In this document: positions 1,828 through 34,100 of the stretch, piece by piece
Layout of the letters: each line of letters starts with the position of its first letter
How positions within the stretch are numbered: the first letter of the stretch is position 1
Virus record (IMG/VR): IMGVR_UViG_3300023174_004481
Location: 8,542-72,541 of that record
Length of the DNA stretch: 64,000 bases
Source of the DNA: a virus
Direction: 5' to 3' (one strand)
The notes under the pieces: model-generated
Seen by the model: only the letters and a program-made list of their open reading frames with translations
The model's database searches: none
Told to the model about the DNA's origin: nothing
Translations under genes and position numbers: made by a program

Positions 1828-2052
1828 ATGGGATCTCTAGATGATGTATATGATTTGACCCAAAAATTAGAAGATAGTAATATAGAATATCTTCTGATAA
1901 CTGTTCAAAAAGGAAAAAAACAAGGCAAAGCAGATGTATTTTTTCATTTAAAAGATAAAGCTTCTATGAAAATTTTAGCTACTGGATTAGCCGCTTTTGA
2001 TAAAGAAATAGATAAAATAAGAAAAGAACAAGAGGAAAAAGATGACGAATAA
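1828..2052 (+). CDS. Small hypothetical protein
   Basis: Tightly packed ORF between the exonuclease and polymerase; ATG at 1828 preferred over TTG at 1816. Confidence 0.6.
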   Translation: MGSLDDVYDLTQKLEDSNIEYLLITVQKGKKQGKADVFFHLKDKASMKILATGLAAFDKEIDKIRKEQEEKDDE

Positions 2053-4603
2053 GGATTTTAATAGTTTATTTGATCAAGTGGATCTACCTCTTTACGGAGT
2101 TAGGCTTCCAGAATTTAAAATTGATAATCAGTATAAACACGATTTAGAAGTAAGTGAAGATGTATCCAATTATGAATTTTTAAGAGCATTATCTTTAAAA
2201 GGATTTAAGAAATTGAATCTTAAGAAAGATTCGGATTTATATAAAAAATATATTGAAAGAGCAAAGCACGAATTAGAAACCCTTAAAGAATTGGAGTTTA
2301 TTGATTATATTATTTTAGTTTGGAGTGTTATTGATTTTTGTAATAAGAATAATATTCCAGTTGGATTAGGCCGAGGTTCAGCAGCGGGTTCTCTTATATT
2401 ATATCTAATTGGGGTTACTCAAATTGATCCAGTTAAATATGACCTTTATTTCGAAAGATTTATATCTAAGATTAGAGCTAAAAAGCAAGTTGTTGATGGA
2501 GTAACCTATTTGGATGGCAGTTTGATGTGTGACGTAGATTTAGATATTTGTTATTATAATAGACATAAAGTTCTCCAATATCTAGAAGAACAATTCAAAG
2601 GTAAGACTAGTAAAATTTTGACATTAAATACATTAAGCGGAAAACTCTTAATTAAAGAGTGCGGAAAAATTGTTGGTGAAAAATCAGAGCAAGAGATGAC
2701 AGAAGTATCGTCTATGATTCCAAAGATTTTCGGACAAGTCAAAGACATCACAACAGCTTTTGATGAAGTGCCTAAATTTAAAGAATGGTGCGAATCTAAT
2801 AAAGATATTTATGGCGTAGCCCTTAAACTAAGAAACTTAATTAAAAATAAAGGAGTTCATCCATCTGGAGTTTTACTATCTTATAATGATTTAGAAAAAT
2901 CTTGTCCCACTGAATTATCTGGAGATAAAGAAGCGGTATCGAGTTTTGATATGAGTTGGGTTTCATTATTTAATATTAAACTTGATATTCTAGGTTTAAG
3001 AAGCGTTTCTGTAGTAGATGACGTTTGTAAGAGTATTGGTAAAAAAATAACTGATATTGATTTAAATGATGAATCTATATATAGGAACTTACAAGACTTA
3101 AGAAATCCTCATGGGTTATTTCAAATTGAAGCAGAAACTAATTTTAAAGTTTGTCAAAAAGTTAAGCCTAAAAATCTAGAAGAATTAAGCGGAGTTTTAG
3201 CTTTAGCTAGACCTGGAGCTTTGCAATTTGCTGATAAATATGCTGCTCATACTAATTTTCAACAATCAGAAAGTATCCATCCATTCTTCGATGACATATT
3301 AAAAGATACTGGTGGAGTAGCTTTATACCAAGAGCAATTAATGAAGATGGCTCATAAAATTGGCTTCACTCTAGATGAAGCAGAAATTTTGAGAAGAATT
3401 GTAGGTAAAAAGAAAACCGAAGAAATCAAAGCTTGGAAAAAGAAGATTGAAGATAAAATTAAAGAAAATAAACTTCCAAAAGAAGTAGGAGAAATCTTAT
3501 GGAAAATCTTAGAGGATTCAGCAAACTATTCATTTAATAAATCACATTCAATCGCCTATGCAGCTTTAGCCGCGATTACTATTTATTTGAAGTTCAATTA
3601 TCCTCAACAATTCTTTTTGTCTTTATTAAAGATGACTAGAAATGAACCAGATCCAATTGGTGAAATATCTAAAATTCAAAAAGAAATGGGTCATTTCGAT
3701 ATTAAATTATTAAAGCCACATATTATTAAATCTCAGATGGATTTCTCTATTGAAGGTTCAGATATTAGATTTGGGCTATTATCAATTAAAGGTATTTCAG
3801 ATAAATCAATTGAAAAGTTAAACGGATTTAGAAACAAGTATTCTAATAAGTTCGAAATTTTTCAAGCAGCAGAAGAAGCAGATCTTAATATCGGAGTATT
3901 ATGTTCGTTGATTCAAGCTGGAGCTTTAACTGGATTTAAACAATCTAGAAGCAAAATAGTATTAGAGGCTCAACTTTGGAATATATTAACAGCAAAAGAA
4001 AAGAAATACGCAATTTCATTCGCTGAACAATTTGATTATGATCTTATTAAAATTATTAAGCATTTAAATACATTTACTGATGAAAAGAATAAAGTCATAA
4101 TCAAGAGTTCTAGATTAGATACTATTAAATCTAAATATGAACCTTATCTTAAAATATATAATCAAAATAGCAAGAGCGAAAGTTTTGCTAATTGGTATTA
4201 TGAAAAAAGACTCTTGGGCTATACTTACGAAAGAACATTGAAAGATATCTTTAATGAAAAAAGAGAAGATCTATTGTTTATTGATGAAATTATGGATTTG
4301 CCAGTAAATCAAAAAGTAGCACTAGTTGGAGAGGTTACAGATGTATATTCTGGAACATCAAAAAATGAAAAGAAGACTAAATATCTAAGACTTAAAATAT
4401 CAGACGAATCTGGCGATATTACTGTATTATTATTTAATGATAAGATAGAAAATTGTAAAACACTTAATGGGAATAAGAATCCAGAAGAAAAGAATATTGT
4501 TATAGTTAAAGGTATTAAAAAAGAAGATTGTATATTTGCGGATTTGGTAGCTGTTCAAGATCATCAAATATATATGAAATTGAGTGAAATTAAAAAGATT
4601 TGA
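2042..4603 (+). CDS. dnaE: DNA polymerase III alpha catalytic core (family C) lacking the PHP domain
   Basis: GRGSAAGS, FERFI, catalytic DVDLD, HPSGV, KLDILGL, ALARPG, YQEQLM, YSFNKSHS, IRFGLLSIKGI (HhH), C-terminal OB fold. Confidence 0.95.
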   Translation: MTNKDFNSLFDQVDLPLYGVRLPEFKIDNQYKHDLEVSEDVSNYEFLRALSLKGFKKLNLKKDSDLYKKYIERAKHELETLKELEFIDYIILVWSVIDFCNKNNIPVGLGRGSAAGSLILYLIGVTQIDPVKYDLYFERFISKIRAKKQVVDGVTYLDGSLMCDVDLDICYYNRHKVLQYLEEQFKGKTSKILTLNTLSGKLLIKECGKIVGEKSEQEMTEVSSMIPKIFGQVKDITTAFDEVPKFKEWCESNKDIYGVALKLRNLIKNKGVHPSGVLLSYNDLEKSCPTELSGDKEAVSSFDMSWVSLFNIKLDILGLRSVSVVDDVCKSIGKKITDIDLNDESIYRNLQDLRNPHGLFQIEAETNFKVCQKVKPKNLEELSGVLALARPGALQFADKYAAHTNFQQSESIHPFFDDILKDTGGVALYQEQLMKMAHKIGFTLDEAEILRRIVGKKKTEEIKAWKKKIEDKIKENKLPKEVGEILWKILEDSANYSFNKSHSIAYAALAAITIYLKFNYPQQFFLSLLKMTRNEPDPIGEISKIQKEMGHFDIKLLKPHIIKSQMDFSIEGSDIRFGLLSIKGISDKSIEKLNGFRNKYSNKFEIFQAAEEADLNIGVLCSLIQAGALTGFKQSRSKIVLEAQLWNILTAKEKKYAISFAEQFDYDLIKIIKHLNTFTDEKNKVIIKSSRLDTIKSKYEPYLKIYNQNSKSESFANWYYEKRLLGYTYERTLKDIFNEKREDLLFIDEIMDLPVNQKVALVGEVTDVYSGTSKNEKKTKYLRLKISDESGDITVLLFNDKIENCKTLNGNKNPEEKNIVIVKGIKKEDCIFADLVAVQDHQIYMKLSEIKKI

Positions 4604-8295: not shown

Positions 8296-9108
8296 ATGAG
8301 CCCAAAAATTAAACAACAAGATCAAACTGCTTCGATGGGAAGCTCCGCACTTTTCGATACTAATATCAATATTGCGCCAGAATTAAATGAACCAGTACTA
8401 GAAGTAGTTCCTCCAAAACTTATCACAAGAAACAAATATGGTTTAATTGAAGATAAAAATACCAATTATACATATAATGATGATGGTACTATTAATTGGC
8501 GTAAAATGGTTAAGCATGAATATCTAGTTCCTAATAGACAAAAAACACAAGAAACAGATGTATCCAAATTAGAAGACAAAGATCTTCTTATTCTTCTTGG
8601 AGGAATCAAAGAACTTGCTCAGATCAGAGGTTATACTAGTGTTTCATACAAAGTAGTAGCTGCCAGCGAAAGCTATTTTGCTACTTCTTGTAAGATTACT
8701 TGGATTCCTAATTACGAAACAAATGGCAAGGTTATTGAATTCGAAGCTCTTGCTGATGCTACTTTAAATAATACTAAGAGTTTTGCTAGATACTTTTTAG
8801 CGGCAATTGCAGAGAATAGAGCCTTTGTAAGGTGTGTTCGTAATTTCTTAAAAATTAATATTGTTTCTCAAGAAGAATTAGGTGATGCTAAAATTCTTGA
8901 AGAAGCAGTGTCTTCAAATGAAAGTCCAACTTCTCCACAAGTTTTATTGGAGAAAGTTATGAAAGAAAAAAAAATAACATTTGAAACTTTAAAAGAACGG
9001 TTATTAAAAGAAAAGTTTGAAAACGCAGAGAGTTTGAATTGTACTCAAGATATTCCAAAATCTAAAATATTCGAACTAATAGAAAGAATTAAAAAGATTA
9101 AAAATTAA
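8296..9108 (+). CDS. Rad52/Sak-like ssDNA annealing protein
   Basis: LLGGIKELA, CKITW..FEALADA, AIAENRAFVRCVRNFL resembles the Rad52-fold AE.RA..RA.R motif. Confidence 0.55.
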   Translation: MSPKIKQQDQTASMGSSALFDTNINIAPELNEPVLEVVPPKLITRNKYGLIEDKNTNYTYNDDGTINWRKMVKHEYLVPNRQKTQETDVSKLEDKDLLILLGGIKELAQIRGYTSVSYKVVAASESYFATSCKITWIPNYETNGKVIEFEALADATLNNTKSFARYFLAAIAENRAFVRCVRNFLKINIVSQEELGDAKILEEAVSSNESPTSPQVLLEKVMKEKKITFETLKERLLKEKFENAESLNCTQDIPKSKIFELIERIKKIKN

Positions 9109-12100
9109 TTAATAAACGGTATATTATAATACGGTATTCTGACCGCAATATTATTTATGGTTGTCGCTAAATAACCTCTTGGTGTAGCTGGCAACGCTGC
9201 AGCTCCTCCAGCTGTGCCAACTGTCGTTCCAGTAATTCCAGTTATACTTATATCAGTTATATTTGTTTTGCCAGAAATATATAAACCACTTGTAGGTGAA
9301 GCAAGTATTCTTGCGTAAATTTTACCAGCAGGATTATTTGCTGGTAGCACTGGGTAATTATGATAAACCCCACTCCTTTTGTAAAAAAGTATACTAATAT
9401 CATCTATTCCTATTAATCCACTATTCATTTCTAAAACTCCACTACTTATTTCAATATTAGGATCTGATTGGGTCCCGTTATCATAATATCCACCACTTGC
9501 ATAATTATTATACTTAAATATAAAACTCTTAAAACCTTTATTAAAATTAAAATTATTTTGACCATAGTCATCTTGCATAGTAAATCTATATGCATTTAAT
9601 TGAGAATAAAGATTCGTCGACACCGATCCCATTGATATATTAGATCCTCCATATAGTACTATATTAGATGCACTTAATTGCATATCTGATCTAATAAGCT
9701 CTAAATTACCTCGAGTACCACCCGCACTAGTAGGATAAGAAGAGTTAGTTATATACCAATTTCCTGTATTATAAATATCTCTTCTTAAACATCCACTAAG
9801 ATCGCTTGCGCTAACTGTATTATCTAGATCATTTTGCAATGCAGTAGCCGAATCACTATAACTTCCTAAAAACATTAAATTATTAAACACATTTCTATTA
9901 TCACTAGAGTTATTCCATTTATATACTTGAGAAATGCCATTTGGAAGAGATCCATAATTTACTGCTATTGATGCCGTGCCAAGTCCAGTTTTATATACTC
10001 CAGTTTCCTCAAATCTTTGCGTATATCTATTTATTAAATTTTCTTCAAAATTCGAAGCAAATCTAAAAGCAGCCCATCCACTTTTGACAACAGCACCTGG
10101 AGTTTTTGAATTAATAACTGGTACACTAGTTGAAAAACTACCATTTGAAGTTGAATTAGCTTTTCTTACTTGTATACCATTATTATATAAATCAAGTATT
10201 ACATCATAATTTGATTGTTTTGTAGCTTTAGTTAAATATGAATTTATACTTGCTGTAGTTAAAAGTCCAGTTTTTGATTCTTGGTCTGTGAAAAATACAT
10301 AGCCATTTCCTACATCTTGAGGTGTTTGCGCTGAGATATAAATATTATTACTAGCAGTAATATTGAGCACAGAGTTTGTGAAATTCATTCTAGGAACAAT
10401 TGGGTTATTGTAAAAATATCCTTGTACATATCCATTAACTTGAGTATATGGCGCAGAAGATACTGATGCTTGAGAAGTGTATTTAACGCCAGTTCTTTCT
10501 TTTGCATCTATGGCTAACCAAAATCCACTCATAGTATAATCTTTTAATATTAAAGCCATTTCATCTGAATTAATTCCAGTGAACGCTGACAAACTATCAA
10601 TATCATCTATATTTAAATTATATTGTCTTATAGTATTTTGCTGGGCAACAGCAGAACTAAATGTTCCAGTCCCAAAAGTTAATCTATAAGTTAAATCTAA
10701 ATTGTTAAAATCTTTTACAGTTGGAGCTAAATTTTGTAAACTCCAATTGAAATTGAAATTTGATCCAGCAAAAAGATTTGCGGCATTTAAAATAACACTA
10801 GATGGACTACCTCCATTATTATAATTAAAATTATTAAATACTAGTATGTTAGTTAAATCTTTTAAAGTTTCAGATACATATAGAAAATTTCCAGCTGTAT
10901 AAGATCTAGAATAATAACCATCTGTACTTAAACCATAAATTCTAAAATAATAACGTGTATTATTTTGACTTGGAATAAATCGTCCTGTAATTGGATTTAC
11001 TGTAGTAGCTAAATTTGCAGTCTCAATTAAAAATGATTGGTTTGGCACAAGAACACTAACACCTTTCAAATTAACTAGCTGTCTACCAAGATCTGCACTC
11101 GTAAAATCACTTCCAGCTTTCGCGTAAACTTTCCAAAAGCTTGTATCAAAATTAATTGTAGAAACTGGCACACCAATTGTATATTGTAAGTATAAATCGG
11201 TAATCAATTGAAAAGCCAATGAACTTGGATAACTTGCTTCTAATTGACTTGTTCCTTGTTCTAGTGGCGGAGCATCTGTTAAACTAATTCCAGATTCTAC
11301 AAATAAGTATTTACTTGGGTTATGTTCAATTGCATTTATATTATATTTATTTCCTTCCAATTCAGTTAATCCAATGACTCTGTAAAGTTCAGTTTCTAAA
11401 TCTTGATTGTTAGTTGCATTTACTGCTACATTTATTGTCCATATAGCTCCAGTTTGTAAAATATAATTTGTTGAATCAAATACTTTATTCGTATTTAATT
11501 TAACTAAAGTTTTTTCTGGATCATAACCTACGGCTCCGACCATATTGCTTAGATTAAATGTTCCAGATTGTATTTCTGGTCTTTGATAACTTGAAACAAA
11601 ATCTGAATAATTTGTTCCAGCAACTCTATAAGTTGGGGTTAAAATTTCAAAATTAAATTGATTAGCGCCCCTAGATGATATATATGAATTTATTTTATTA
11701 TATTCGCCATCTAATATAAAACTATGAGTTCCATTTTCAAGAGATATACCCAACACTCTTCCACCCAATCTATTTAAAACTCTGTTTGAATCTTGAATTT
11801 TTATTAAATCTCCAGGTTTTAAATACAGAGCGTCTAATCCTGCGGTAAAATCAACAGTTTCTGTTTCTAATTGTTCGCTAGCTAAAGCCCATCTTCCAAG
11901 TCTATAAGCTTGACCTCGACTAGTACAACCAAAAGCTGTAAGTTCTAATTTTCTAATTCCATATTTTCTAACTGCATCTGGATCTTCTACATATTCAACT
12001 ACTGGTTTAGCAAAATTAGTCATATCATTATATCTTACTACCGCAATACTATTTCTTACCTTTTTGCTACTACTAGAATAGTTAAAGTCTCCATTTTCTA

Positions 12101-13937
12101 CATTAGCATTAGTAAATAAAACAAATGGATCTTGAGGTATATCAGCAATTGCATAAATTGATCCATTCGCATAGTAAGACATTCCTCTAAATATACTAGC
12201 AAAATCATTTAATAAATTAAAAGCATCAGAAAAATCATTTATAATTGCATTACAAGTAAATCTTGGTTCTACACCACCATAACCATCAGAAACTAAAGTA
12301 TCGCAATATCTTGAAATTTTATATAAATTCCATTTATCTACATTATAACTTTCTATGTATTTACCTAATCCATATCTAGTGTTTGTTAAAAGATCATAAT
12401 AACACCATACAGGATTATCTGTCCATTTTAATTCAGCACTAAAAGTACCATCCCAATCTCCAGTATAAGTTTTTTTAATTGTATCATAATTAGATGGCAC
12501 TTTGACTTTTAATAAATTAACATCATATGATCTACTTGGTACATCTTGAAAATAATCAGTAGTAAATAAATTTTTAAAAATAGCAACTTTTGGATATATA
12601 TATTGTTCAGAAAAAACTTCAGTTATAGCATGCACGCTACACGAATCTCTCAAATTTAATACTGTACTATCTTGTTTAGTTCTTTCAATTTGAACTCTCC
12701 ACCCAAGATGACTTTTCTCATCTGCTTTAAAATAAGGACTTAAATCAAAAGTAAAAGTATCTATAAATCCACTACTTATTTTACCTTTTGATTGTTTATT
12801 TTCGCTTATAACAATAGATGGACCACTTGTAGTTAATTTAATTATTTTTATATTGTATGTTATATCTCGATCTCTTATGTCTCCTAAAGTTTGCGAAATT
12901 TTGACTGTTTGTCCACAACCTAAATTAAAATCTTGTCGATCAATATTTGGATCATTTTGTTGATCAAATAAATTATCAATTTTTATTGCAACTATAAAAT
13001 TACTAACATCTGTACTTTTGAAATCATAAGATTTTTTAAATCCTGGTCCATATTTTAAAATATCTCCTATAGATAATGTTCTAGTTGCATTAGATAAAGA
13101 TTTATTTCCTTGTAAATTACTCTGTAAAGAGCTTGGCGCTATTTGATTTCCATAATCATATCTAAAATTTATAGAAGAATAATTATATTGACCATTTTCA
13201 TCTACTACTGGAACATTTCTCCAAAAAACAGATTGTAAATATCCACCTATATAAGGAGTAAAATTAGCAGAATCCCAGCCAATATTTCCAACTCTACCTG
13301 CATAATTATATTTTCCACTCACCAAACCTTCTATAGGTCCTTCACAAATTAAATCTGTTACTTCTGTTTCGGTTCTTGATATCGCTCTTGAAATACCAGG
13401 TTTATCTTTAATACCTTCTGTTTCTTCTTTTGGAGTATGCGGATCTGGAGGAGGGCTTGGATAACATGGTGGTGGTCCTCCTTTATTATGTACAAAAATA
13501 TCTTCTGCAATATAAGTATGATATTTCTCTACTGTAAAATTATAAACAGTATATTCTTTATCAATAATTTCTATTTTATCAATTTTTAATTTTTCGTTAA
13601 ATCTACTTATGATTAAATCAGTTTGAATAAAATTTTTAATTTCAATAAATTCATTATTTTGATTTAAAAATGGATGATTTGGAGTAGTCCGAATTTTCTT
13701 ATCTTTGAAAAATATATCTATAACTTTTTCATTTTCATGTATAAATGTATTTTCAACTTTACTAATTTTTATAGATAAGTCTTTATCGAAACAAAATACT
13801 AAATCTCCAATTTTAATATCTTCAATATTTTTATATCCAAAAGGAGTATATATTTTTGTTCCAGCTACAAAACATCCTGCTCCTCTAATAATTTTAGGAT
13901 ATATTTTTTTTCTATTATTTTGCTCTAATTTTTCCAT
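9105..13937 (-). CDS. Tail tip / central fibre protein J-like, with an N-terminal Hint domain
   Basis: HTPKE, DLICEGPIEGL, YTGDWDGTF..WTDNPVWCYYDLLTN.RYGLG, YCDTLVSDGYGGVEPRFTCN, AFGCTSRGQAYRLGRW are hallmark lambda gpJ motifs. Confidence 0.95.
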   Translation of the reverse strand: MEKLEQNNRKKIYPKIIRGAGCFVAGTKIYTPFGYKNIEDIKIGDLVFCFDKDLSIKISKVENTFIHENEKVIDIFFKDKKIRTTPNHPFLNQNNEFIEIKNFIQTDLIISRFNEKLKIDKIEIIDKEYTVYNFTVEKYHTYIAEDIFVHNKGGPPPCYPSPPPDPHTPKEETEGIKDKPGISRAISRTETEVTDLICEGPIEGLVSGKYNYAGRVGNIGWDSANFTPYIGGYLQSVFWRNVPVVDENGQYNYSSINFRYDYGNQIAPSSLQSNLQGNKSLSNATRTLSIGDILKYGPGFKKSYDFKSTDVSNFIVAIKIDNLFDQQNDPNIDRQDFNLGCGQTVKISQTLGDIRDRDITYNIKIIKLTTSGPSIVISENKQSKGKISSGFIDTFTFDLSPYFKADEKSHLGWRVQIERTKQDSTVLNLRDSCSVHAITEVFSEQYIYPKVAIFKNLFTTDYFQDVPSRSYDVNLLKVKVPSNYDTIKKTYTGDWDGTFSAELKWTDNPVWCYYDLLTNTRYGLGKYIESYNVDKWNLYKISRYCDTLVSDGYGGVEPRFTCNAIINDFSDAFNLLNDFASIFRGMSYYANGSIYAIADIPQDPFVLFTNANVENGDFNYSSSSKKVRNSIAVVRYNDMTNFAKPVVEYVEDPDAVRKYGIRKLELTAFGCTSRGQAYRLGRWALASEQLETETVDFTAGLDALYLKPGDLIKIQDSNRVLNRLGGRVLGISLENGTHSFILDGEYNKINSYISSRGANQFNFEILTPTYRVAGTNYSDFVSSYQRPEIQSGTFNLSNMVGAVGYDPEKTLVKLNTNKVFDSTNYILQTGAIWTINVAVNATNNQDLETELYRVIGLTELEGNKYNINAIEHNPSKYLFVESGISLTDAPPLEQGTSQLEASYPSSLAFQLITDLYLQYTIGVPVSTINFDTSFWKVYAKAGSDFTSADLGRQLVNLKGVSVLVPNQSFLIETANLATTVNPITGRFIPSQNNTRYYFRIYGLSTDGYYSRSYTAGNFLYVSETLKDLTNILVFNNFNYNNGGSPSSVILNAANLFAGSNFNFNWSLQNLAPTVKDFNNLDLTYRLTFGTGTFSSAVAQQNTIRQYNLNIDDIDSLSAFTGINSDEMALILKDYTMSGFWLAIDAKERTGVKYTSQASVSSAPYTQVNGYVQGYFYNNPIVPRMNFTNSVLNITASNNIYISAQTPQDVGNGYVFFTDQESKTGLLTTASINSYLTKATKQSNYDVILDLYNNGIQVRKANSTSNGSFSTSVPVINSKTPGAVVKSGWAAFRFASNFEENLINRYTQRFEETGVYKTGLGTASIAVNYGSLPNGISQVYKWNNSSDNRNVFNNLMFLGSYSDSATALQNDLDNTVSASDLSGCLRRDIYNTGNWYITNSSYPTSAGGTRGNLELIRSDMQLSASNIVLYGGSNISMGSVSTNLYSQLNAYRFTMQDDYGQNNFNFNKGFKSFIFKYNNYASGGYYDNGTQSDPNIEISSGVLEMNSGLIGIDDISILFYKRSGVYHNYPVLPANNPAGKIYARILASPTSGLYISGKTNITDISITGITGTTVGTAGGAAALPATPRGYLATTINNIAVRIPYYNIPFIN
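13485..13874 (-). other. Hint (intein-like/BIL-type) domain of 130 aa, no homing endonuclease
   Basis: CFVAGTKI...IEDIKIGD (block A), TTPNHPF (block B), VYNFTVEKYHTYIA..IFVHN (blocks F/G); the following residue is Lys. Confidence 0.93.
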
Positions 13938-13939
13938 AG

Positions 13940-14650
13940 TTAAGTCGTTCTAGTTGTAGTATTAGAGGCATTTTCTATATATGAAGTTGCATAAGTTGCA
14001 CTTATTGTCTTTGATCCAATTAAAAGTCTGCCATACCCTATTGGAATTGGTCCGCCTTCTCCAGCTGTATTTGTTGGCCCATCAAAAAGATAAGATTTTC
14101 CACCTCCACTTTTACTTCCAGCAACATTTGGAGCATTAAATTCTGGAGCTACAAATGGAGGAGGCGAAGATAATAAAGCTAAAAATCCAACTGCAGCTAA
14201 ACCTATTCCAGCTACTACTAAAGATGCCGCTAATAAACCGAATACTCCAGCTGAAGCAGCAATACCAACTCCAGTAAAAATCAAAGCTATTCCTAAAATT
14301 ACTGGAATAATTTGGAAAAATCCACCACCACCACCAGATCCCTCTAAAATAGGTATAATATCTATAGATTCTAAAACTTGCTCTTCAAAAGAAGTTAATA
14401 AATTTGAATTGATTACTTTATCAAAATCATTTTTAATCTCTTCTTCTGGTTTAAAAACTTTAAAATCTTTTTTGTTTATTAATATTCTATATTTAATATT
14501 TTGTTTATCTAATTCGTAAAGATTTTTATATAGAATTCCAGTATTCGCTTCGATAGCTCGAATAGCTTCACTTACGCTATTAATTGCTAAATTCCAATTT
14601 GCTTTATTTAATTTTTCTGCTAAAATTCCATGTAATTCTACTTTTACCAT
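13940..14650 (-). CDS. Tail assembly protein I-like (ubiquitin-like N-domain)
   Basis: V.LHG.LA, SVSEAIRAI, IIPILEGSGG, hydrophobic segment, SYLFDGPTNT..EGGPIPIGYGRLLIGS..IS. Confidence 0.9.
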   Translation of the reverse strand: MVKVELHGILAEKLNKANWNLAINSVSEAIRAIEANTGILYKNLYELDKQNIKYRILINKKDFKVFKPEEEIKNDFDKVINSNLLTSFEEQVLESIDIIPILEGSGGGGGFFQIIPVILGIALIFTGVGIAASAGVFGLLAASLVVAGIGLAAVGFLALLSSPPPFVAPEFNAPNVAGSKSGGGKSYLFDGPTNTAGEGGPIPIGYGRLLIGSKTISATYATSYIENASNTTTRTT

Positions 14651-14652
14651 AA

Positions 14653-15738
14653 TTATAATTCCTTATTTGTTGCTGGGAATCCACCAAATGGAAGATTAGT
14701 TGCATATCTTTTTCTGCAACCTCTTAATTTTTTAGAGCATTGATCCGCAATCCAATAATTTGTATCATAAGGAGATTTTGTATTTGAAGAAATTTTAGAA
14801 ACAAAATAATTTTTAATTTCATTTGCAATAATAAAAACATATTCACCTTTATTATATGAAGTATTTTTATTCCATTCTCCCCTATTAGTTAAAGATCCCA
14901 AACCAATTAAATTAGTAATTAACTCATCTTTTTCATTTGCAATTGGCTTTCCTTGATTTAATCTTGTTGAATAAGGATTATTAGTTTCAGAATATTCACA
15001 ACCTTCTCCTCTATAATCAAAAGAGCAAGAAGTACTATATAAAGTCCTCAATGGAAGTCTGATATTTTCTAAATCTAAAATTGAACTTAATTCATACTCT
15101 AAAACATTTTTATTTTCTTTTAATTTTCTATCAATATAATAAATATCTGCAGCTAACTCAGCATTATTATCTGGATCAATTTGGAAATCATCATCATTAA
15201 TTATACCACCATTACTTTTAAAATTAACTGCATCTAAATATTTTAAAAAAGTTCTTCTTCTTAAGATTTTTAAACCAATGATATCTCCTATGTTTCTTAT
15301 TTGACTTTTAATTTGAGTAAAAAAAGTATTGTAATATGCATTTTGCGCACGGTTTGAAAAAGTCATTTTTGGTTTTGGTAATGTTCCTCTACTTACAGTT
15401 TCAAAACCTTCTATTATTATTGGAAACGGTATATATCTTTTACCCTTCCAAATTAATTGTCCAAATAAATCTGGAGAAGTAAGATTAACACTTGTATTTT
15501 CCATCATGATATTTACATTATGAAATCTTAAAACTCCAGGAGTATCAACCGAACTACCACCATAAGGAGGTGGTATACTGCCAGCAAAACTTATTTCCGC
15601 TAAACTTGTATTATTTCTATCTAAACCAAATTTACTAAAATCTAATTCATAGAAGCTAATAAGTAAAGAAGGCGCAAATTTTGAAGATTCTGAAAATATT
15701 TTCTTTGATCCAGCGGAGACTGATTGATTTACGCTCAT
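14653..15738 (-). CDS. Minor tail protein L-like (4-Cys Fe-S type)
   Basis: W.G..Y.PFPI..EGFE, RRRTFLKYLDAVNF, YYIDRK, YELSS.LD, C..YRGEGC...CSK...GC..R...PFGGFP. Confidence 0.93.
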   Translation of the reverse strand: MSVNQSVSAGSKKIFSESSKFAPSLLISFYELDFSKFGLDRNNTSLAEISFAGSIPPPYGGSSVDTPGVLRFHNVNIMMENTSVNLTSPDLFGQLIWKGKRYIPFPIIIEGFETVSRGTLPKPKMTFSNRAQNAYYNTFFTQIKSQIRNIGDIIGLKILRRRTFLKYLDAVNFKSNGGIINDDDFQIDPDNNAELAADIYYIDRKLKENKNVLEYELSSILDLENIRLPLRTLYSTSCSFDYRGEGCEYSETNNPYSTRLNQGKPIANEKDELITNLIGLGSLTNRGEWNKNTSYNKGEYVFIIANEIKNYFVSKISSNTKSPYDTNYWIADQCSKKLRGCRKRYATNLPFGGFPATNKEL

Positions 15739-16277
15739 AGATTTGCGGTTTCAACAAATGTAGTATTTACTGTATAGTTGTTGAAAAAATTATAATTTAA
15801 CGTCCACTCTTCACACACAAATCTTTTAGGATAAGTTTGCGAACTATCAAAATTATATGGAAATGGTGGATCAAAAAAGAAACCTTCAGCAGATCTTCTT
15901 TTATGCAAAAAATGAGCAATTGCTTTTGTTTCGTTTTTGTCTCTTCCTTCAAATGTTAAACTGAATCTTAAAGAATTATTATTTATTCCATCTGCAACTC
16001 TTTGTTCGTATCCATCTCCAAATTTAATAACACTAACTGTTGGCTTTAATTTTAGATCTGAATTATTATAACTAGCTTTCCAACAAAAATCTGGTTTAGT
16101 TAAAGTTCCATACGTTTTATAACCTCCCCAAAAAGCAGATGATGAGCTTGGGGTATTATTTCTATTGTTATCTACTAAACTATAATAATATATTGAATTG
16201 TATAAAACTATATAATTTTTATAATAAGTGCTACTAGCACTATATTGAGGCACATTATATAATGATGAATCAGCCAT
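15735..16277 (-). CDS. Minor tail protein M-like with an N-terminal CBM5/12-like module
   Basis: P.V...KFGDGYEQR..DGINN, F.FDPP, FVCEEW, TFVE. Confidence 0.9.
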   Translation of the reverse strand: MADSSLYNVPQYSASSTYYKNYIVLYNSIYYYSLVDNNRNNTPSSSSAFWGGYKTYGTLTKPDFCWKASYNNSDLKLKPTVSVIKFGDGYEQRVADGINNNSLRFSLTFEGRDKNETKAIAHFLHKRRSAEGFFFDPPFPYNFDSSQTYPKRFVCEEWTLNYNFFNNYTVNTTFVETANL

Positions 16278-16341: not shown

Positions 16342-18114
16342 ATGCTATCCAGAACAGTAAGACAAGATCAAAAAGTATATATAAACAATAATGAAATTGT
16401 TGGCATTCAAGAATTTAATGCTGATTATAATACCCCAATAGAAATCGTCAAAAGTTTAGGAATGGAAGCAGTATCTTACTATAACAATAATAATATATTA
16501 GCTGAAATTTCAATTAATAAGTTATTGATAGATAATGATCCTTTTATTAACTTTGTTGATTATGATCAAGTATTTGGTGGTCACGTTGAATATAAAGACA
16601 AATATTTTGCATTTAATTCTGGTATATTGAATAATTATAGACTTAACTGTTCTGTAAATGAAATTCCAAGATTAAGCGTAACTTTGAATGCTTTAGGAGA
16701 TTTTGGCAGTGGAGTAAATAAACCAAATAAAGATTCATTAATAAAACCACACATTGATATAACTGACTACGCTGATATAGAGATAGACTTGGATGATTTT
16801 AAATTTAATAGACTACAAGCAATTGATATAAATATAAATTCTGAAAAAAATATAATCTACGCTCTAGGAAGCTCTTATCCAAAAGAAATAAAAATTATTC
16901 CTCCAATTGTAGTCGATTTACAATTTACAGTCAAAGCAGATGATTATAATTTTAAGAATACAAGAGATTTAATATGCAAATACAAAGTAGATTCATTTAG
17001 TATAAAATTTAATAAATTCAAAGATCCTTCTAGTGAGTTATTTAATTTTACTTTCAATCAAGCTATATTCATGGGAGAAACATTTCAAGGCTCGGTAGAT
17101 TCATCTGCAAATATTATAATAAAATATCAAGGTTTAATTTATAACGAAAGAACAATGACTCATCCTCCTGCAATGGGTGGAGCACAAGGCGCGCCACCTC
17201 TTGTTATACCAATTGTAAGACCTCCAGTTCCATTAACAACAACTCCGCCCCCGCCTCCAGCTTTACCTAATCAAGGTTTTGATGGAGCGACTGTACCACC
17301 TCCGCCTTCATCACCTCCTACTACTACGACTACTACTACGACTACTACGACCACTACGACCACTACAACTACCACGACAACAATTGGACCAGTTGGTTGT
17401 ACTACTGCTTATGTTGGATTTGGTGGAAGTACTGGATCTGGAAGAGAAAAACATGAAATTTTATCTTTTTCTTTTTCTAACGCTTTTCATACAATTACAA
17501 ATATTAGTTCATCTGATGTAAATTTTGTAGGAGGTGCACGTTATTCAAATTCTTTTATTTTAACTGAAGATGAATATGATTCTGCTGGAAATTTTTATTT
17601 AAAAAATCCATTACGTTTTAAATTAACAAAAGATGCGAATGTTTTACCATTTTCTGTATTTTTTACGATGAAAATGACTGTTGGACCTAATCCTGGAATT
17701 GGAAGAGCAGATGGTATAACTTTTATAATTCAAAGTCAATCTGTATCAGCAGGTGGTACTGGAGGAGGAATTGGATATATGGGAATCACACAAAGTATTG
17801 GAGTAGCTTTTGATACTTTTAACAATGGTAGCATGGATAACAATCAAAACAATAACATTGAATTTGATATTAATGGGAATGTGACATCAAGCATTAGTCA
17901 AGTTAATTTAAACTCAAATGTAATGGATTTAGCAGATGGACAAATAAAATATGTTTGGATAGATTATTCTGGAGGCGATAATTTAGGTATATTAAGTGTT
18001 TACATAAGTAATTCATCAAGTAAACCAGCTTCACCTTCTCTTATGATACAATCACAAAGTTTAGAATCTCCATTTCCTTGCTTAACCACCACTACAACTA
18101 CTACTCCTTTGTAG
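16342..18114 (+). CDS. Tail-tube-fold protein fused via a Pro/Thr stalk to a circularly permuted L-type lectin
   Basis: N-terminal tube-like repeats (GIQEFNADY..LG; RLQAIDIN..IYALG..P..PPIVVDLQF); poly-Thr; lectin motifs ADGITF, GGGIGY, VAFDTFNN, YVWIDY, VGFGGSTG. Confidence 0.7.
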   Translation: MLSRTVRQDQKVYINNNEIVGIQEFNADYNTPIEIVKSLGMEAVSYYNNNNILAEISINKLLIDNDPFINFVDYDQVFGGHVEYKDKYFAFNSGILNNYRLNCSVNEIPRLSVTLNALGDFGSGVNKPNKDSLIKPHIDITDYADIEIDLDDFKFNRLQAIDININSEKNIIYALGSSYPKEIKIIPPIVVDLQFTVKADDYNFKNTRDLICKYKVDSFSIKFNKFKDPSSELFNFTFNQAIFMGETFQGSVDSSANIIIKYQGLIYNERTMTHPPAMGGAQGAPPLVIPIVRPPVPLTTTPPPPPALPNQGFDGATVPPPPSSPPTTTTTTTTTTTTTTTTTTTTTIGPVGCTTAYVGFGGSTGSGREKHEILSFSFSNAFHTITNISSSDVNFVGGARYSNSFILTEDEYDSAGNFYLKNPLRFKLTKDANVLPFSVFFTMKMTVGPNPGIGRADGITFIIQSQSVSAGGTGGGIGYMGITQSIGVAFDTFNNGSMDNNQNNNIEFDINGNVTSSISQVNLNSNVMDLADGQIKYVWIDYSGGDNLGILSVYISNSSSKPASPSLMIQSQSLESPFPCLTTTTTTTPL

Positions 18115-21074: not shown

Positions 21075-24000
21075 TTAACAAAGAGAGGGTAATGATATAA
21101 AATTAGCGGGCCAAGGTGAGGTTGAAAATGGATAACCATTTTTGCTTGGACAATAATAAATATTAGCATTATAAGGCATTGGGAAATAGCCAACGCTAGG
21201 TGCATTTCCAAGGAAGTATACGTTTACAGGCCCAGGTGGTATATGAGCAAAAGCATAATCTTGGATACTTATTATTGTAGATGGAATAGTAATATTAGTT
21301 AATCCTGTACAATTAGTAAATGCATTGGTTGCTATAACTAATAAATTATTACCCAAATTTATACCAGTTAATTCGGAACAATTAACAAATGCGGCTACTC
21401 TAATATATTGAATACCATTTCCCATGTTCGCATATTTTAATTTACCACAATTAGCAAATGCCATATCTTGAATATCTATGAGATTATTTCCAATAGTATT
21501 TACTCCTGTTAATTCAGGACAATCGGCAAATGCAACTGTTTCCAAGTTTATTACGCTATTAGGTATAGTTAAAGATTTTAATTTTTGACAAGAACGAAAT
21601 GCGCCGAGTCCTATATTAGATACTCCATTTCCAAGATTTATATTTTCTAATTCTATACATGACCTAAACGCATACATTCCAATACCAGTGCAAGTATCAG
21701 GTATAGTTAAAGATTTTAATTTTTCACAAGAATCAAATGCACGGGTTTTAATATTATTTAGAGTATTTGAAAGAACAACGCCACTTAAGTTAGAGCAATA
21801 AGCAAATACGTCTTCATTAATTGTAGTTATGCCGTTTCCAATTATAACACCAGTTAATCCTGTGCAATAATAAAAAGCGTTAGACTCAATACTAGTAACA
21901 GTATTTGGAATTGTAATATTTTTAATTTTTACATAAGGATTAGACGCAAAAGCATAATCTTGAATAGTATTCACTTCCCTTCCAATATCAACTCCAGTTA
22001 AATCTTTACCAAAAGTAACACCATAGTCACTAAATGTAATTGTGGAATTCGAATGTGTAGAAACACTTCCATTTGAATAATAAAAAGTAGTGTTGGCAGG
22101 ACCAGGAGTAGTTGTTGTAGTTGTAGTTGTAGTAGTTGGTCCAACTGTAGTTGTAGTGCTAGTTGTTACCCCAGGACAAGAAGCGCTATAGCTATAATAT
22201 ACTCCATAACTACAATCTTCTGTATTTAAAATTTTAACATTAACAGTTAAATTATTTATTCCTGCTAATTTTGCAAATGAGAATGTTCCAGAAGAATTTG
22301 TTGTTCTTGATAATATTTTTACGCTATTATAATACAATTCAAACAATAATTCATATCCATTATCAGAAGAGTATGTAAAAATTATATTTCCAGTAGAAGT
22401 AGTTCCTAAATTTAGTAATCTTCTATGATTACAATAATAATCTACAAAATTAGTATCATCTGAATCAGTATAAGTAATTCCACAAGATCCATTTAATTCT
22501 ATTGGAGCAAGAGTTGTTGTTGTTGTAGTCGTTGTTGTTGTGGTTGTGGTTGTTGTTCTAGAACAATTTATACTATATTCATAATTATATTCATCACAAA
22601 ATCCGTCTTCTGGACCATCAATAGCTACAATAACTTTATCATACGCATCATTTTTAATAAAAGAATATGAACCATTATTATTTGAAATTATTGATGTTCC
22701 ATTATTAGAACTAACATAAGAGGTTCCATCCACAATATCAACTTTAATAAGTAATACGCTATTAGTTACATTTAAATTATAAATATAAAATGTTAAATTA
22801 GAAGTGCTGTACCAATTAAAAGTTAATATTCCATTTTGACTTCCAACATTTACTTCTCTAGCACCATAACATCTTCCAGGTAATGTTTTTCCATAATTCC
22901 ATATTTCATCTGATGTATAATATGTTGTATTACATGTTCCAAAAGTACAATAAGGCGCGAATGGATGTCTTGGAGTCGTTGTTGTAGTTGTGGTAGTTGT
23001 AGTTGTTGTCGTAGGAGGAGGAGTCGTGCTAGTGGTAGTAGTAGTTGTGGTCGTTGTCGTAGTAGTTATAATATAAGTATAAAATTTAGGATGACTTTTT
23101 CCTACAATCATAAAATATGCAACATCGTCTGATGCAATTGCAATCCAATTATCATTTTGTGAAGAAATTGTTACCTCTTGAAATGGTTCATCATTTCTGC
23201 TTACTAATATTTTATTTGTATCAGGTAAAACTAATGCTGGTTTGTTAATGGATATAACTCTAACTATGCCATCTTGCCATGATGTATTTCTATTATAATT
23301 AATAGTTTTTAAATCCGATAAAATATATGGACTAAAAGTTGAGCTGGTTTTCTTTTCCCAAGAATCGCCATAATCACTTATATAGTAAGATTCACTTGCA
23401 GACGTAATATTTAAATTTGTAAATTCATTTATAGTATTGTATATGCCTTTACTAATTTGATAACCATTACTAACAATTGGAGATTCACTAGTTTGAACCC
23501 AATTTATTCCATCTTCTGACCAAGCTGTTCTACCCAAAGAATCTATCACAATAAAACGACTATCTTTCGTAGCCACTCCAACCCAATATCCAACAAAAGG
23601 TAATGATCGTTTTGTCCAATTTATTCCATCTGTAGAAGTGGCGTAATTTACTCCATAAGCAAAACTTTCTCCACTATACGAAACCGCTACCCAAAGATTT
23701 AATGTATTATTATAAGCCGCAGCAGACCAATTTAAAGATGGCATTGAATTAGTAAAAGACCAATCTCTTCCATTTGATGAATACAATGCAAAATTACAAT
23801 TTCCATATAAATTAATATTACTATCTCCACAAAGTATTAAAAATTTTCCATTACCATAACAAATTCTTTTAACTTTACATTGATCTGGTAGAGTTGGTAA
23901 ACTAGCACTAGTCCAATCAATTTTATTTTCTGTGATATAAACTTTATTGTTATTTCCTAAAACTATCCAAGTATCAGTTGTCCCATTTTTTCCAAAAACA

Positions 24001-24674
24001 GCATCTATTGGTACTCCAGATGGATAAGGGGTCGTACTTGTGGTAGTGGTTGTTGTCGTAGTAGTTGTAGTAGTTGTGGTAGTTGTAGTCGATGTTATTG
24101 CATTACAAGGATCTATAGTTGTAGGAGTATTCGCAGCAACACATTGATTAAATATTTTTCGATCTGTAATTATATCATAAATTGTTATCCAATTCAATGC
24201 AGGATCACATTGTCCCAAACCAAAACCAGCATCTTCATTATTTTGTAATGCACATCTTAATTCAAATATTAATTGACCATCTACAGAACTAGAAGAAATT
24301 TGATTAATTTGTAATGGATTTAAAAGCAAATAATCATAAAGATCTCCACCACTAAGGTCTATATTATTTAAACTTACTTTTCCTAAATTTATATTATTAA
24401 TATAAATATAAAAATCAGAACCATCAGAATATCTGTATGCTGGACATGGCCCATTTGCATGATCATGTCTTATTTCAATATTTAAATTAGATAAACATGG
24501 ATTTGGAGTTGTGGTTGTGGTTGTGGTGGTTGTAGTTGTATTAGGTCCAATGGTAGTTGTAGTAGTAGTTGTGGTTGGAATTGGACCGCAACAGCTTAAA
24601 TAATCATTGCCATAAATATCTACTACTCCTGGTGGTAAGTATATTCTATTATCTGGGCCATTAATACAATCCAT
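21075..24674 (-). CDS. Multidomain virion/adhesin protein: Cys-rich modules, poly-Thr linkers, BNR-like propeller, C-terminal BspA-type LRR (LRR_5)
   Basis: Repeated S.DG..W motifs; IP..V..I...AF..C..L..I.IGN repeats; at least 6 Thr tracts. Confidence 0.8.
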   Translation of the reverse strand: MDCINGPDNRIYLPPGVVDIYGNDYLSCCGPIPTTTTTTTTIGPNTTTTTTTTTTTPNPCLSNLNIEIRHDHANGPCPAYRYSDGSDFYIYINNINLGKVSLNNIDLSGGDLYDYLLLNPLQINQISSSSVDGQLIFELRCALQNNEDAGFGLGQCDPALNWITIYDIITDRKIFNQCVAANTPTTIDPCNAITSTTTTTTTTTTTTTTTTTSTTPYPSGVPIDAVFGKNGTTDTWIVLGNNNKVYITENKIDWTSASLPTLPDQCKVKRICYGNGKFLILCGDSNINLYGNCNFALYSSNGRDWSFTNSMPSLNWSAAAYNNTLNLWVAVSYSGESFAYGVNYATSTDGINWTKRSLPFVGYWVGVATKDSRFIVIDSLGRTAWSEDGINWVQTSESPIVSNGYQISKGIYNTINEFTNLNITSASESYYISDYGDSWEKKTSSTFSPYILSDLKTINYNRNTSWQDGIVRVISINKPALVLPDTNKILVSRNDEPFQEVTISSQNDNWIAIASDDVAYFMIVGKSHPKFYTYIITTTTTTTTTTTTSTTPPPTTTTTTTTTTTTTPRHPFAPYCTFGTCNTTYYTSDEIWNYGKTLPGRCYGAREVNVGSQNGILTFNWYSTSNLTFYIYNLNVTNSVLLIKVDIVDGTSYVSSNNGTSIISNNNGSYSFIKNDAYDKVIVAIDGPEDGFCDEYNYEYSINCSRTTTTTTTTTTTTTTTLAPIELNGSCGITYTDSDDTNFVDYYCNHRRLLNLGTTSTGNIIFTYSSDNGYELLFELYYNSVKILSRTTNSSGTFSFAKLAGINNLTVNVKILNTEDCSYGVYYSYSASCPGVTTSTTTTVGPTTTTTTTTTTPGPANTTFYYSNGSVSTHSNSTITFSDYGVTFGKDLTGVDIGREVNTIQDYAFASNPYVKIKNITIPNTVTSIESNAFYYCTGLTGVIIGNGITTINEDVFAYCSNLSGVVLSNTLNNIKTRAFDSCEKLKSLTIPDTCTGIGMYAFRSCIELENINLGNGVSNIGLGAFRSCQKLKSLTIPNSVINLETVAFADCPELTGVNTIGNNLIDIQDMAFANCGKLKYANMGNGIQYIRVAAFVNCSELTGINLGNNLLVIATNAFTNCTGLTNITIPSTIISIQDYAFAHIPPGPVNVYFLGNAPSVGYFPMPYNANIYYCPSKNGYPFSTSPWPANFISLPSLC

Positions 24675-28376: not shown

Positions 28377-31157
<2,781 letters not shown>

Positions 31158-31162
31158 ATTTT

Positions 31163-34100
31163 TTAAATTGGTGAATTTTTATTTAATAATCCGCCAGGAC
31201 GTTTTTGTTCAATTATAGTAGTAATAACATTTGTTTTAATTAATTCAGTTAAAGCTTTATATTTTTGTGATGACTCTCTATTACCTGTTGAATCATTTGA
31301 GTCATCGTCTCCTGATCCAGATGATGAAGAATTTTGATTTTGTGCTACTTTATTATCAGCTTCTACATTTACAGATATATTTATATTATTAACCATTCCT
31401 TCGCTTGATTTTTTCTCACTTAAATTAGTATTTAAATCTGTTAAAGCGCTAATTAAACTTGGTAGTGTATTATTTTCTTCTTGATTAATTTTTGTGTATT
31501 CTATATTTTTTTCATTAAAAATTGTATTAGAGTTTTTATCCTTAGTTGGCGTCATCTCATTTAGCTTATTTAAAATACCATTTAAAGTGGTAATATTTTC
31601 TTCATTAACTTTGCTTGCTTCTATATTAGTTATTTGAGTTGAATTTACATTTTCTGGATTTTTATTTAATTGATTATTTGTATTTGTGGTTTGAATAACA
31701 GTAGTTAAATTATTTATTGCTTCAATTAAATAATTAGAAGGATCTTCGTTAACTGTTGAAATTTGAGTTGATCCAACTTGTCCACCTTTTGCAAATTTAT
31801 TTACTGATCCTTTATTTAATTTTTCAAAGAATCCTGAGCCGTACTTTTTAACTGCTTCTTTATTGACTACGTATTCTCCATTCATTAATAATGCTGGAAT
31901 ATCATCACCAGCTTGTCCACCATCTGCAAATCTAAATCGATTGCTTACTTCTAATCCATTACTTCTTGTATTTGATACTGTATTATAAGCTGGTCGATTT
32001 GAACTTTGTAAAGCATTTTGTAAAAATGGTGAGCCAATTCCTCCAGCTGCCAATAAACCTAAAGTTGGTAAATTTTTAGAAGAGAGTAGACTACCTAATC
32101 CGCCACCACTTGTTCCGCCAGCCCCACCATATAAACTAGTTATTGCTCCATAATTACTTCCAAGTGCGCTTGTTGTTCCACCCATACCACCTGGAAGTGC
32201 ATAAGCGCTTGCTCCTCCACCACCACCAAATAGACTACTTAATCCACCGCCACCTCCTCCAAATAAACTTCCTAATCCACCCCCACCCATACTTCCCAAC
32301 AGTCCTCCACCAATTGCCATTGCAGCATTTATATATCCACTTGTTATAAGATTACTTTTTCTTTGGTTATAGGCATTTAACGCTTCTTCATAAGCTGATC
32401 TAGCTTGAACATAAGACATTTTATTTTGCATTAAATTATCTTGTATATAAGAAACATAATCATAGAAATCTTGTTCTGTTTGCATTCTTTCTTCATTTTT
32501 ACGACTTGTTGGATCAGATAATGCATAATTAGAAAGATTTGGATCAGTAACGCTTTGCCCCTTCAATTGATTTAAATAATCTTCTTCTGCTCGTATGCCA
32601 CCAGCTAAATCTTTTGTATTTAATCCAGCTGTATTTTCATAACCAGTAACTACATATTTATTATCAAAATTTTTGCTAATTCCACCGCCATCAGCCATAC
32701 CTTTAGTTGATCCTACATTTAAAGATTCTAAAAATCCCATTCCATAAGCTTGTTGTACGCTTCTAACGGCTCTTTTATTTAAAACATATTCTCCTTTAGA
32801 AAGCATCGCTGGAACATCATCAACCATTCCAGATCCATCTTTTACATATCCACCAGAAGCATAACCTTTTACTAATCCACCTCTTGAAAATCCAAATAAA
32901 CTTCCCAATCCACCTCCTCCGCCCCCTCCTAAAAGCCCTTGGAATTGATTAAAAATTCCACCAAAAAGTAATTTAGTTGCTATTTGAGTAGAAATTTGTT
33001 GGACTTGTTGTAATACTTGAACAGCAAAGTCATTGAAAGCATCCCCAGCGCTTTGCGTGCTATTTGCAAAACCCATTAATGCATTAGAAAATGAATCTTG
33101 TATATTTCTTGCTACATCTGTTGCTGATTGATTTAAATCTTGAAAAAGTTGAGTTCCATTGTAACTCATTGAATTAACAAAATTAGTTGTTATACCTTCA
33201 ACAGAATTATATCCTGGTCTACGAGCTAAACCTTGTTGTCTTTCTAATTCTTTATTTGCATATTCTGTAGAACTCAAATAACCATCAGCAAGATCTTTTA
33301 AATCTTTAGCATGTTCGACTCTAATTTTTTCTAATTCATTTGCTCTTTCGCTTTGAGTATTTGATTCTTCTAAAGCTCTATTTAATTCTATTCTAGCTTG
33401 CAGTATATTAATTTCACCAGATTCTAATCTAGATAAAGTACTTTCTAAATTCTTTTGGTATTCATTACTAATTGATAATCCTGCATTATAATTTTGTACA
33501 TTTCTAACTATTGCGTCGTATTGTTGAACATATTCTTTAGCAAGTTCTGAATTAGCTTCTTCTCCAGCGTATTTTTGTTTTATTTGTTCAACTTGTTGTT
33601 TTGCAAGTGATACTAAGTCTTGCGCTTTCATTTTAGCTTCACCAGCATCTATATTTGTACCACCATTTAATTGACTTTGTATATTTTGATTAATTCTATT
33701 GCCTTCTTGTTCAGCTACAACTTGTTTAATTGTTTGATCCAAACTTGCTTGAGCTTCTTGACTCAAAGGTTTAGTGCTGCCAGTTAATTGTTGTAAAAGA
33801 CTAGTAGATCCTCCGCCCTGTCCTCCTGGTTTCCCATTTGGAGCAATAGTATTTAAGGTATTATTTCCTAATTCTATACCATTTGTCGTAATATCTTCAA
33901 TTTTAGTTTTAATTGTTTCTATATTGATTTCTGTTTTATTAAGAGATTCAAATTGTTTTGTAGCTATATCTGTCGCATCTTTTTGATTAATATTAATTCC
34001 AAATGTTTTTGATAATTGTAAAAGATTTTGGCTTTGACCCTCTATAATAGCTTTTCTTAATTCTGGATTTACAGTTTGTGGTCCAACACCAAATTGTTTT

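Follow-up and report, generated by a model that had tools for sequence, protein, structure and literature searches.

What is a self-processing domain doing near the start of a phage tail-tip protein, when the residue that follows it is a lysine rather than one of the nucleophiles of protein splicing? The question is raised by a viral contig in IMG/VR (record IMGVR_UViG_3300023174_004481; 72.5 kb, about 30% GC, estimated to be 47% complete), of which we analysed positions 8,542 to 72,541, a stretch of 64,000 nucleotides that we call the window. On its minus strand a single open frame (window positions 9105..13937; 1610 amino acids) encodes a J-like tip attachment protein, or central tail fibre, and the N-terminal tail of this protein (J from here on) is interrupted by a Hint domain, the only one found in the 72.5-kb record. 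The explanation that we consider likely overall is a passenger of the bacterial intein-like (BIL) type: optional, exchanged horizontally, and able to excise itself from J.

By its sequence, the host protein is a lambda gpJ-like tip attachment protein: its domains, its similarity to solved gpJ, the order of the neighbouring genes and its HTPxE...EGPIEG motif all match. It has Pfam matches to Phage-tail_3 and FNIII-A_GpJ, and its body matches, by sequence in the PDB, the solved lambda gpJ chains 8IYK and 9E7M (E about 1e-69); across the lambda gpJ and F2-pyocin fibre chains the E-values run from 1e-69 to 1e-85. The genes lie in the order M-like, L-like, gpI-like, J, all on one strand. The N-terminus of lambda J, MGKGSSKGHTPRE...SEGPIEGPV, aligns with ...KGG...PHTPKE...CEGPIEGLV of the window J, and since the start of lambda J lines up there, the Hint lies within the short Gly/Lys-rich N-terminal tail ahead of HTPxE.

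The interval 13485..13937 (minus strand, as for all parts of J) corresponds exactly to residues 1-151, that is, to a leader and the Hint. The leader, or N-extein, spans residues 1-21 (13875..13937) and ends in ...KKIYPKIIRGAG, the last residues being IIRGAG; its motif ...YPKIIRGAG is conserved, and in relatives that lack the Hint the same motif is followed directly by the glycine run. The Hint itself, of 130 amino acids (residues 22-151; 13485..13874), reads CFVAGT ... TTPNHPF ... VYNFTVEKYHTYIAEDIFVHN and ends in DIFVHN. Its first residue is Cys22 (13872..13874), the predicted thioester nucleophile at the junction Gly21/Cys22 (a slash marks a junction here and below); the block B motif T85-P-N-H88, of the form TxxH, lies at 13674..13685, and the C-terminal pair His150-Asn151, with the predicted site of Asn cyclisation, at 13485..13490. 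The +1 residue is Lys152, encoded by AAA at 13482..13484. The codons of Cys22, of the His-Asn pair and of Lys152 were checked against the bases; the leader, the block B motif and the linker were read from the translation. Behind the Hint the protein continues as KGGPPPCYPSPPPDPHTPKE, and the C-extein is the whole 1459-residue J. Past Lys152, a Gly/Pro-rich linker (G153-E171; 13425..13481; GGPPPCYPSPPPDPHTPKE) leads into the HTPxE motif of J, and ...CEGPIEGLV comes later. The HTPKE of the linker aligns with GHTPRE of lambda J, and P160, P164, P166, P169 and E171 are invariant in 37 J proteins, H167 and T168 nearly so. The Hint has a GC content of 19.2% (6.2% at third codon positions); in the rest of J, 390-nucleotide windows average 29.3% with a minimum of 24.9%, all above the Hint. 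An 82-codon open reading frame (ORF) with a TTG start runs antisense to the Hint and leader (13705-13953, plus strand); it is without support and probably spurious in such AT-rich DNA.

The sequence leaves the domain far above chance: it is a real Hint with a complete catalytic set. Pfam assigns residues 30-151 to PT-HINT (PF07591), which scores 46.6 bits (E 5.3e-12; cut-off 27.7), and gives Intein_splicing 29.4 bits, under its cut-off of 35.8. The best solved relative by sequence is the Clostridium (C.) thermocellum BIL 2LWY, matched over its full length (E 2.3e-15); the best true intein is gp41-1 (E 3.6e-5). In an AlphaFold2 model built from 14 sequences, the predicted local distance difference test score (pLDDT) reaches about 90 for residues 21-152 but stays under 50 in the leader and in residues 153-200; the leader is predicted to be disordered and the flanks flexible. 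Foldseek returned 65 PDB matches at E ≤ 0.001, and among the matches listed all are Hint domains. Ranks 1 to 5 are taken by BIL domains, namely 6Y75 and 6TMM (BIL2 of the BUBL protein of Tetrahymena thermophila; top match, E 6e-12) and 2LWY (template modelling score 0.85 on the target), before any mini-intein. Residues 22-151 are thus classed, by sequence and model, as a mini Hint of the type-A BIL (PT-HINT) kind.

This assignment agrees with most of what is described for the type. Like 2LWY, the domain has the mini Hint fold, an N-terminal Cys, TxxH in block B, a C-terminal His-Asn and no nucleophile at +1, and its sequence is nearer to BILs than to inteins. According to the accessible parts of three reviews (PMC4031507, PMC7664689, PMC7765530), type-A BILs keep the C-terminal His-Asn, miss the +1 nucleophile and yield mainly N- and C-cleavage products; splicing is described there as possible when C-terminal cleavage comes first and the freed amine then attacks the N-terminal thioester. 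According to two of these reviews (PMC4031507, PMC7664689), ligation without a side-chain nucleophile is known from a few in vitro cases. A preliminary description of this DNA had placed a Hint with Lys at +1 inside the N-terminal Gly/Lys motif of J, which the translation, Pfam, 2LWY and the alignment with lambda J confirm. It had also likened the domain to BIL and pretoxin Hints that mainly autocleave, a resemblance borne out by the PT-HINT score, by 2LWY and by the first two reviews.

The +1 residue was followed through the relatives of J. A search with residues 1-420 found 109 proteins, 42 of them J-type. One or two Hints stand before the J body in 19 of the 42 (21 Hints in total); the other 23 are Hint-less, and at this site their sequence runs on unbroken as ...RGAGGGG(G)n.... 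The 21 J Hints are followed by Lys (12), Gly (7), Ile (1) or Arg (1), and eight further Hints from metagenome and viral loci by Lys (2) or Gly (6). Cys, Ser or Thr at +1 therefore occurs in none of the 29 J Hints (Lys 14, Gly 13, Ile 1, Arg 1), whereas the true inteins in the same match list, found in radical-SAM-like proteins, DNA polymerase III and other proteins, serve as a control and carry HN/C. These counts agree with the further claim of the preliminary description that a lysine here excludes canonical class-1 splicing. The aligned J Hints are nearly uniform at the catalytic positions: all 21 have the first Cys, the block B His and the terminal Asn, 20 have the block B Thr and 19 the penultimate His, with SN in the other two. 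Among the loci scanned, 11 of 90 have Hints, three of these being the window's own record; setting that record aside, Hints occur in 8 of 56 locus rows with an assessable J N-terminus, several rows being one contig present in two collections.

Three variants of J Hint can be distinguished. The window Hint belongs to the first, a single domain of 130-132 amino acids followed by Lys, the +1 residue in 14 of 14 members of this clade. The second consists of tandem pairs (P0014/15, L004/5, L037/38; P and L numbers denote protein and locus rows) in which every Hint has 143-144 amino acids and leads into a Gly run. In the third (P0039, P0041, P0043), a module of about 720-1090 amino acids lies ahead of the Hint and J. 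This module has He_PIG and LamG matches in Pfam, and the Hint behind it is followed by Gly, Ile or Arg; the Hint of these three proteins may be a self-cutting linker between two virion proteins.

Is the lysine a property of J or of the Hint? Lys152 as merely an old residue of the extein was considered first, in view of the ...GGGK(S/Q)C... seen in many J proteins without a Hint and of GKGSSKG in lambda. The prevalence of Lys across the Hint clade speaks against this explanation. The 130-residue Hint alone, scored against 1.84 billion representative proteins, gave 9801 matches at E ≤ 0.001, and the nearest Hints were taken as 272 full-length ones from 142 of the 148 best new representatives. 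Their first residue is Cys in 269 and their end HN in 267, with Gly at −1 in 124; at +1 the commonest residues are Lys (149), Ala (23), Gly (21), Cys (18), Thr (17), Arg (13) and Ser (10), and KGG follows the Asn in 74. Since Lys is the modal +1 residue of these 272, it is a trait of the Hint clade and not of J. It is not obligatory there, and Ala, Gly and Arg also occur. J-like proteins with N-terminal Hints account for 7 of the 148 library representatives, and such Hints are also found in more distant J-like proteins (P0042, P0044). Among 50,697 phage records of GenBank, 8 have a match to the Hint at E ≤ 1e-3, each at no more than 41% identity and none under a J annotation; one region among these matches, H31, has hypothetical proteins only.

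The same clade turns up in other settings. Four proteins (P0110, P0112, P0113, P0125) contain tandem arrays of 4-9 Hints joined by linkers of only K, KG, KGG or KGGGG, so that only 0-4 residues separate the +1 Lys of one Hint from the Cys that opens the following one. Nor is the module confined to tip and fibre proteins, since a tape measure protein of a phage (P0048; 2797 amino acids; PF10145) carries such a Hint within a Gly run, GSGGS/C ... AHN/KGGGGG. A related Hint is present in alpha-2-macroglobulin-type proteins, several of them named by their source as Patescibacteria or candidate phyla (P0057, P0063, P0065, P0069-70, P0073, P0075-77, P0079-81, P0084-90, P0093-95, P0099, P0103-104), where similar short motifs stand on both sides (for example AEKGG/C ... 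HN/EKGG or DKGG), like a duplicated target.

How the Hint is distributed among J proteins bears directly on its role. The preliminary description had pointed to a comparison of J N-termini with and without the Hint; in that comparison, the Hint-less relatives show the same leader and an unbroken Gly run, and one of them (P0006) is 94% identical to the window J over 810 columns. A maximum-likelihood tree was built from the J bodies of 51 proteins, Hint columns excluded; its 24 Hint-bearing and 27 Hint-less proteins interleave, and the presence of the Hint requires at least nine changes, eight of them forced by the starred branches; shuffled labels give a mean of 17.1. The histories of domain and host also disagree. 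P0001 and P0004 are 69% identical in the Hint and 90% in the J body, whereas P0001 and P0009 are 85% identical in the Hint and 59% in the J body. The J bodies of P0001-4 and P0006 form a fully supported group, and on a tree of 29 Hints the approximately unbiased (AU) test rejects a single clade of the P0001-4 Hints (p 1.0e-5), giving p 0.0097 when P0005 is added to the clade. Between the window and L036, the synonymous divergence (dS) is 0.39 for the Hint and reaches 0.94 over the 420 codons of J that follow. The shared segment is sharply bounded (GCA GGA/TGT ... CAT AAY/AAA GGA GGA), the outer leaders and linkers being unrelated, and the insertion site is the same Gly run in all Hint-bearing J proteins. 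Because the Hint has no endonuclease domain, its transfer probably occurs by recombination in the conserved flanks. No homing endonuclease was recognized through Pfam or PHROG matches in the neighbours scanned, a scan that left some small ORFs outside. At the place of the Hint, several Hint-less J proteins (P0019, P0020, P0036, P0037; L032) have odd inserts instead of the Gly run, such as GALVFGGRRS, GALLMGRRRS and GAGGRRRGGGS, which could be scars of imprecise Hint loss.

The domain is not decayed, since its catalytic residues are kept and its ratio of nonsynonymous to synonymous divergence (dN/dS) is 0.24-0.31 in three comparisons (0.16-0.32 in the J body); these values indicate purifying selection on the Hint. 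Of the notion of a sporadic, decayed selfish intein, raised in the preliminary description as what might speak against a role in maturation, the sporadic part thus stands, with at least nine changes on the J tree, and the decayed part falls. From these sequence comparisons, the Hint is probably a functional, selected yet dispensable element that moves between J alleles.

What would such an element do to its host? Its site is the glycine run of the conserved N-terminal motif [I/L]-[R/K]-G-A-G-(G)n-K of J, and it would be gained, lost and swapped between the J alleles of related AT-rich phages. In the precursor, Cys22 would form a thioester at Gly21/Cys22 by an N-S acyl shift, aided by the block B His88. 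Asn151 would then cyclise and cut the Asn151/Lys152 bond, so that the 130-residue domain would leave the J precursor and Lys152 would become the N-terminus of mature J. The 21-residue leader may be lost, in which case the reaction would be cleavage only, or an amine of Lys152 may attack the thioester and re-attach it, as in the route without a side-chain nucleophile that has been proposed for type-A BILs. With no Cys, Ser or Thr at +1, splicing through the canonical branched ester is impossible. On the sequence, we think that the Hint has a good chance of excising itself, and we would place cleavage only and leader ligation close to even. Ligation is favoured by the leader motif, equally conserved in Hint-bearing and Hint-less J proteins, and by the predicted product ...RGAG-KGG..., which would come within one residue of the length of a Hint-less N-terminus. 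Cleavage only is favoured by more distant J proteins that have no such leader, by the large separate module before the Hint in proteins of the P0039 type, and by the predominance of cleavage among BILs in the accessible parts of PMC4031507 and PMC7664689.

A variant of the ligation, which we regard as rather unlikely, would use the side chain: the epsilon-amine of Lys152 would resolve the Gly21 thioester, before or after cyclisation of Asn151, and the leader would end up on the side chain of the N-terminal Lys. By analogy, such an isopeptide 'side-chain splice' would chemically resemble the lysine-directed splicing of Tetrahymena BIL2, equally unlikely as it may be here. For BIL2, the top fold match, the providers of the structure describe, in the accessible part of their paper (PMC8616854), resolution of the thioester by a lysine amine; this lysine belongs to another domain, and the bond formed is an isopeptide. 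BIL2 differs from the J Hint in being eukaryotic and flanked by ubiquitin-like domains, and it is 24% identical to it.

Other roles for the domain have to be weighed against self-excision of a mobile passenger. The preliminary description favoured a domesticated maturation switch, a fixed and required step of tail-tip assembly in which timed self-cleavage exposes a KGG N-terminus. Purifying selection on the Hint, the retention of Lys152 in 14 of 14 close Hints and the recurrence of N-terminal Hints in the distant J-like proteins mentioned above would suit a switch; a required step is hard to reconcile with a Hint-less J at 94% identity, with 27 of 51 J proteins being Hint-less and interleaved with the others through at least nine changes, or with the different histories of Hint and J body. 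Phages without the Hint have this leader and linker too, and assembly therefore does not need the domain. The sporadic presence of the domain among J relatives thus contradicts the proposed switch, which we now consider improbable. We likewise see little prospect that the Hint is an inactive relic or a structural decoration retained on mature J. The flexible predicted flanks and an exposed N-terminus might tolerate a retained domain, and the accessible parts of the lambda tail-tip papers (PMC10721106, PMC11101478) do not state where the gpJ N-terminus lies in the virion; the catalytic Cys, block B His and terminal Asn nevertheless never vary, at a dN/dS of 0.24-0.31. That selection has kept precisely the catalytic residues speaks for chemistry rather than for a scaffold.

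A true intein would account for the four intact splicing blocks, for the conserved site and sporadic distribution, and for the Intein_splicing score (29.4 bits). Indeed, the canonical class-1 mini-inteins gp41-1 and NpuDnaB share with the J Hints the fold, the blocks, a conserved site in an essential gene, sporadic presence and the lack of an endonuclease. The J Hints differ from them in the +1 Lys (Gly, Ile or Arg in relatives) and are less similar to them, at 3.6e-5 at best, their closest relatives being BILs. A class-1 intein proper is ruled out by Lys152 and by the lack of a nucleophilic +1 residue in all 29 J Hints. Splicing would then have to recruit a nucleophile from elsewhere, for instance Cys158 (+7, in KGGPPPC), which we find scarcely credible; as a surrogate, Cys158 was rejected, being absent from 5 of 12 Hint-bearing J proteins of the K type, with poly-Pro there in P0009-13. 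In a further alternative, related to Hedgehog or BUBL chemistry and also raised in the preliminary description as ligation of the leader to another molecule, the thioester would pass the leader on to an external acceptor, for instance a lysine of another tail protein, a lipid or a host molecule. The top fold match, Tetrahymena BIL2, is described as forming an isopeptide to the lysine of another domain, and P0039, P0041 and P0043 carry large modules of Ig/LamG type before the Hint; in these relatives with a 720-1090-residue N-extein the whole module would be handed over. A leader of 21 residues is, however, an odd cargo, the Hint is optional, and no adduct-recognition region follows it. The Hog domains of Hedgehog-type proteins have such a region, for a sterol, and no C-terminal Asn cleavage, whereas the J Hint ends in His-Asn and runs directly into the linker of J. 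Conjugation of the leader is very unlikely in our judgement, and we give the transfer of a whole module just as small a chance.

Several points weigh against the preferred reading of a self-excising BIL-type passenger. Its site is conserved and lies in a conserved phage structural protein, and its pattern is sporadic like that of inteins; the accessible part of PMC7765530 describes BILs in hypervariable regions of non-conserved bacterial proteins. When neighbouring stretches are summed, Intein_splicing reaches 36.5 bits against the cut-off of 35.8; since it just reaches that value, the choice between BIL and intein depends chiefly on the +1 residue and on 2LWY. The AU test groups had been picked with the pairwise identities already known, and the conflict between trees could have its source in recombination inside the J body rather than in movement of the Hint. 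If the leader were simply cut off and lost, its conservation in Hint-bearing J proteins would be unexpected. Finally, cutting at either junction is a deduction from sequence.

Set beside the type-A BIL description, the J Hint departs from it in four ways: it sits in a phage virion protein, at a conserved site, with intein-like population behaviour and the signature G/C...HN/KGG. The usual host of a type-A BIL is a variable secreted bacterial protein; here it is a conserved phage tail-tip protein, and the insertion always falls at one place within a conserved Gly/Lys motif. Presence, absence and horizontal exchange follow an intein-like pattern, and a tiny N-extein of 21 amino acids faces a C-extein that is the whole of J. 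We found no paper on a Hint in a J-type tail-tip protein in literature that was accessible in part and left subscription journals outside its coverage.

If the reading is right, a BIL-type Hint behaves here like an intein, optional, swapped between alleles, inserted at a single conserved position in an essential virion protein, and with the modal residue of its whole clade, lysine, at +1. The short leader and the defined C-extein would give three distinguishable products (a free Lys152 N-terminus, a linear ligation and an epsilon-branched one), which makes J a clean natural test bed for cleavage versus ligation in vivo. Should a lysine be the acceptor, the G/C...HN/KGG signature of hundreds of Hints, including those in tandem arrays joined by K, KG or KGG, would mark a natural, nucleophile-free and lysine-directed ligase module spreading among the tail proteins of phages, and ligation to lysine would offer a compact new tool for protein engineering. 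Should the reaction be cleavage only, phage tail genes would appear to tolerate purely parasitic self-cutting inserts.

The genes upstream of J, on the same strand, complete the lambda-like order. Next to J lies a gpI-like tail assembly protein of 236 amino acids (13940..14650, minus strand; phrog_32 'tail assembly protein', E 2.2e-31), followed by a gpL-like minor tail protein (14653..15738, minus strand; Pfam Phage_tail_L, E 9.8e-35) and a gpM-like minor tail protein (15735..16277, minus strand; Pfam Phage_min_tail, E 2.3e-20); the tape measure gene is at 31163-38788. On the opposite strand within the tail module, a protein with a legume-lectin domain is encoded at 16342-18114 (plus strand). 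It is a possible adhesin, as are a BspA-type leucine-rich-repeat protein of 1199 amino acids (21075-24674, minus strand) and a second lectin-domain protein (28377-31157, minus strand). DNA polymerase III alpha is split across three ORFs on the plus strand (93-692, 1188-1826 and 2042-4603), its parts being a PHP domain, an RNase_T-type exonuclease and a core with fingers, HHH and OB domains; inteins are present in DNA polymerase III of related phages (P0092, P0097). Two large proteins on the minus strand, of 1926 (56801-62581) and 1272 amino acids (49780-53598), each contain a BppL_N (lower-baseplate N-terminal) motif and are, by this motif, probably fibres or receptor-binding proteins.

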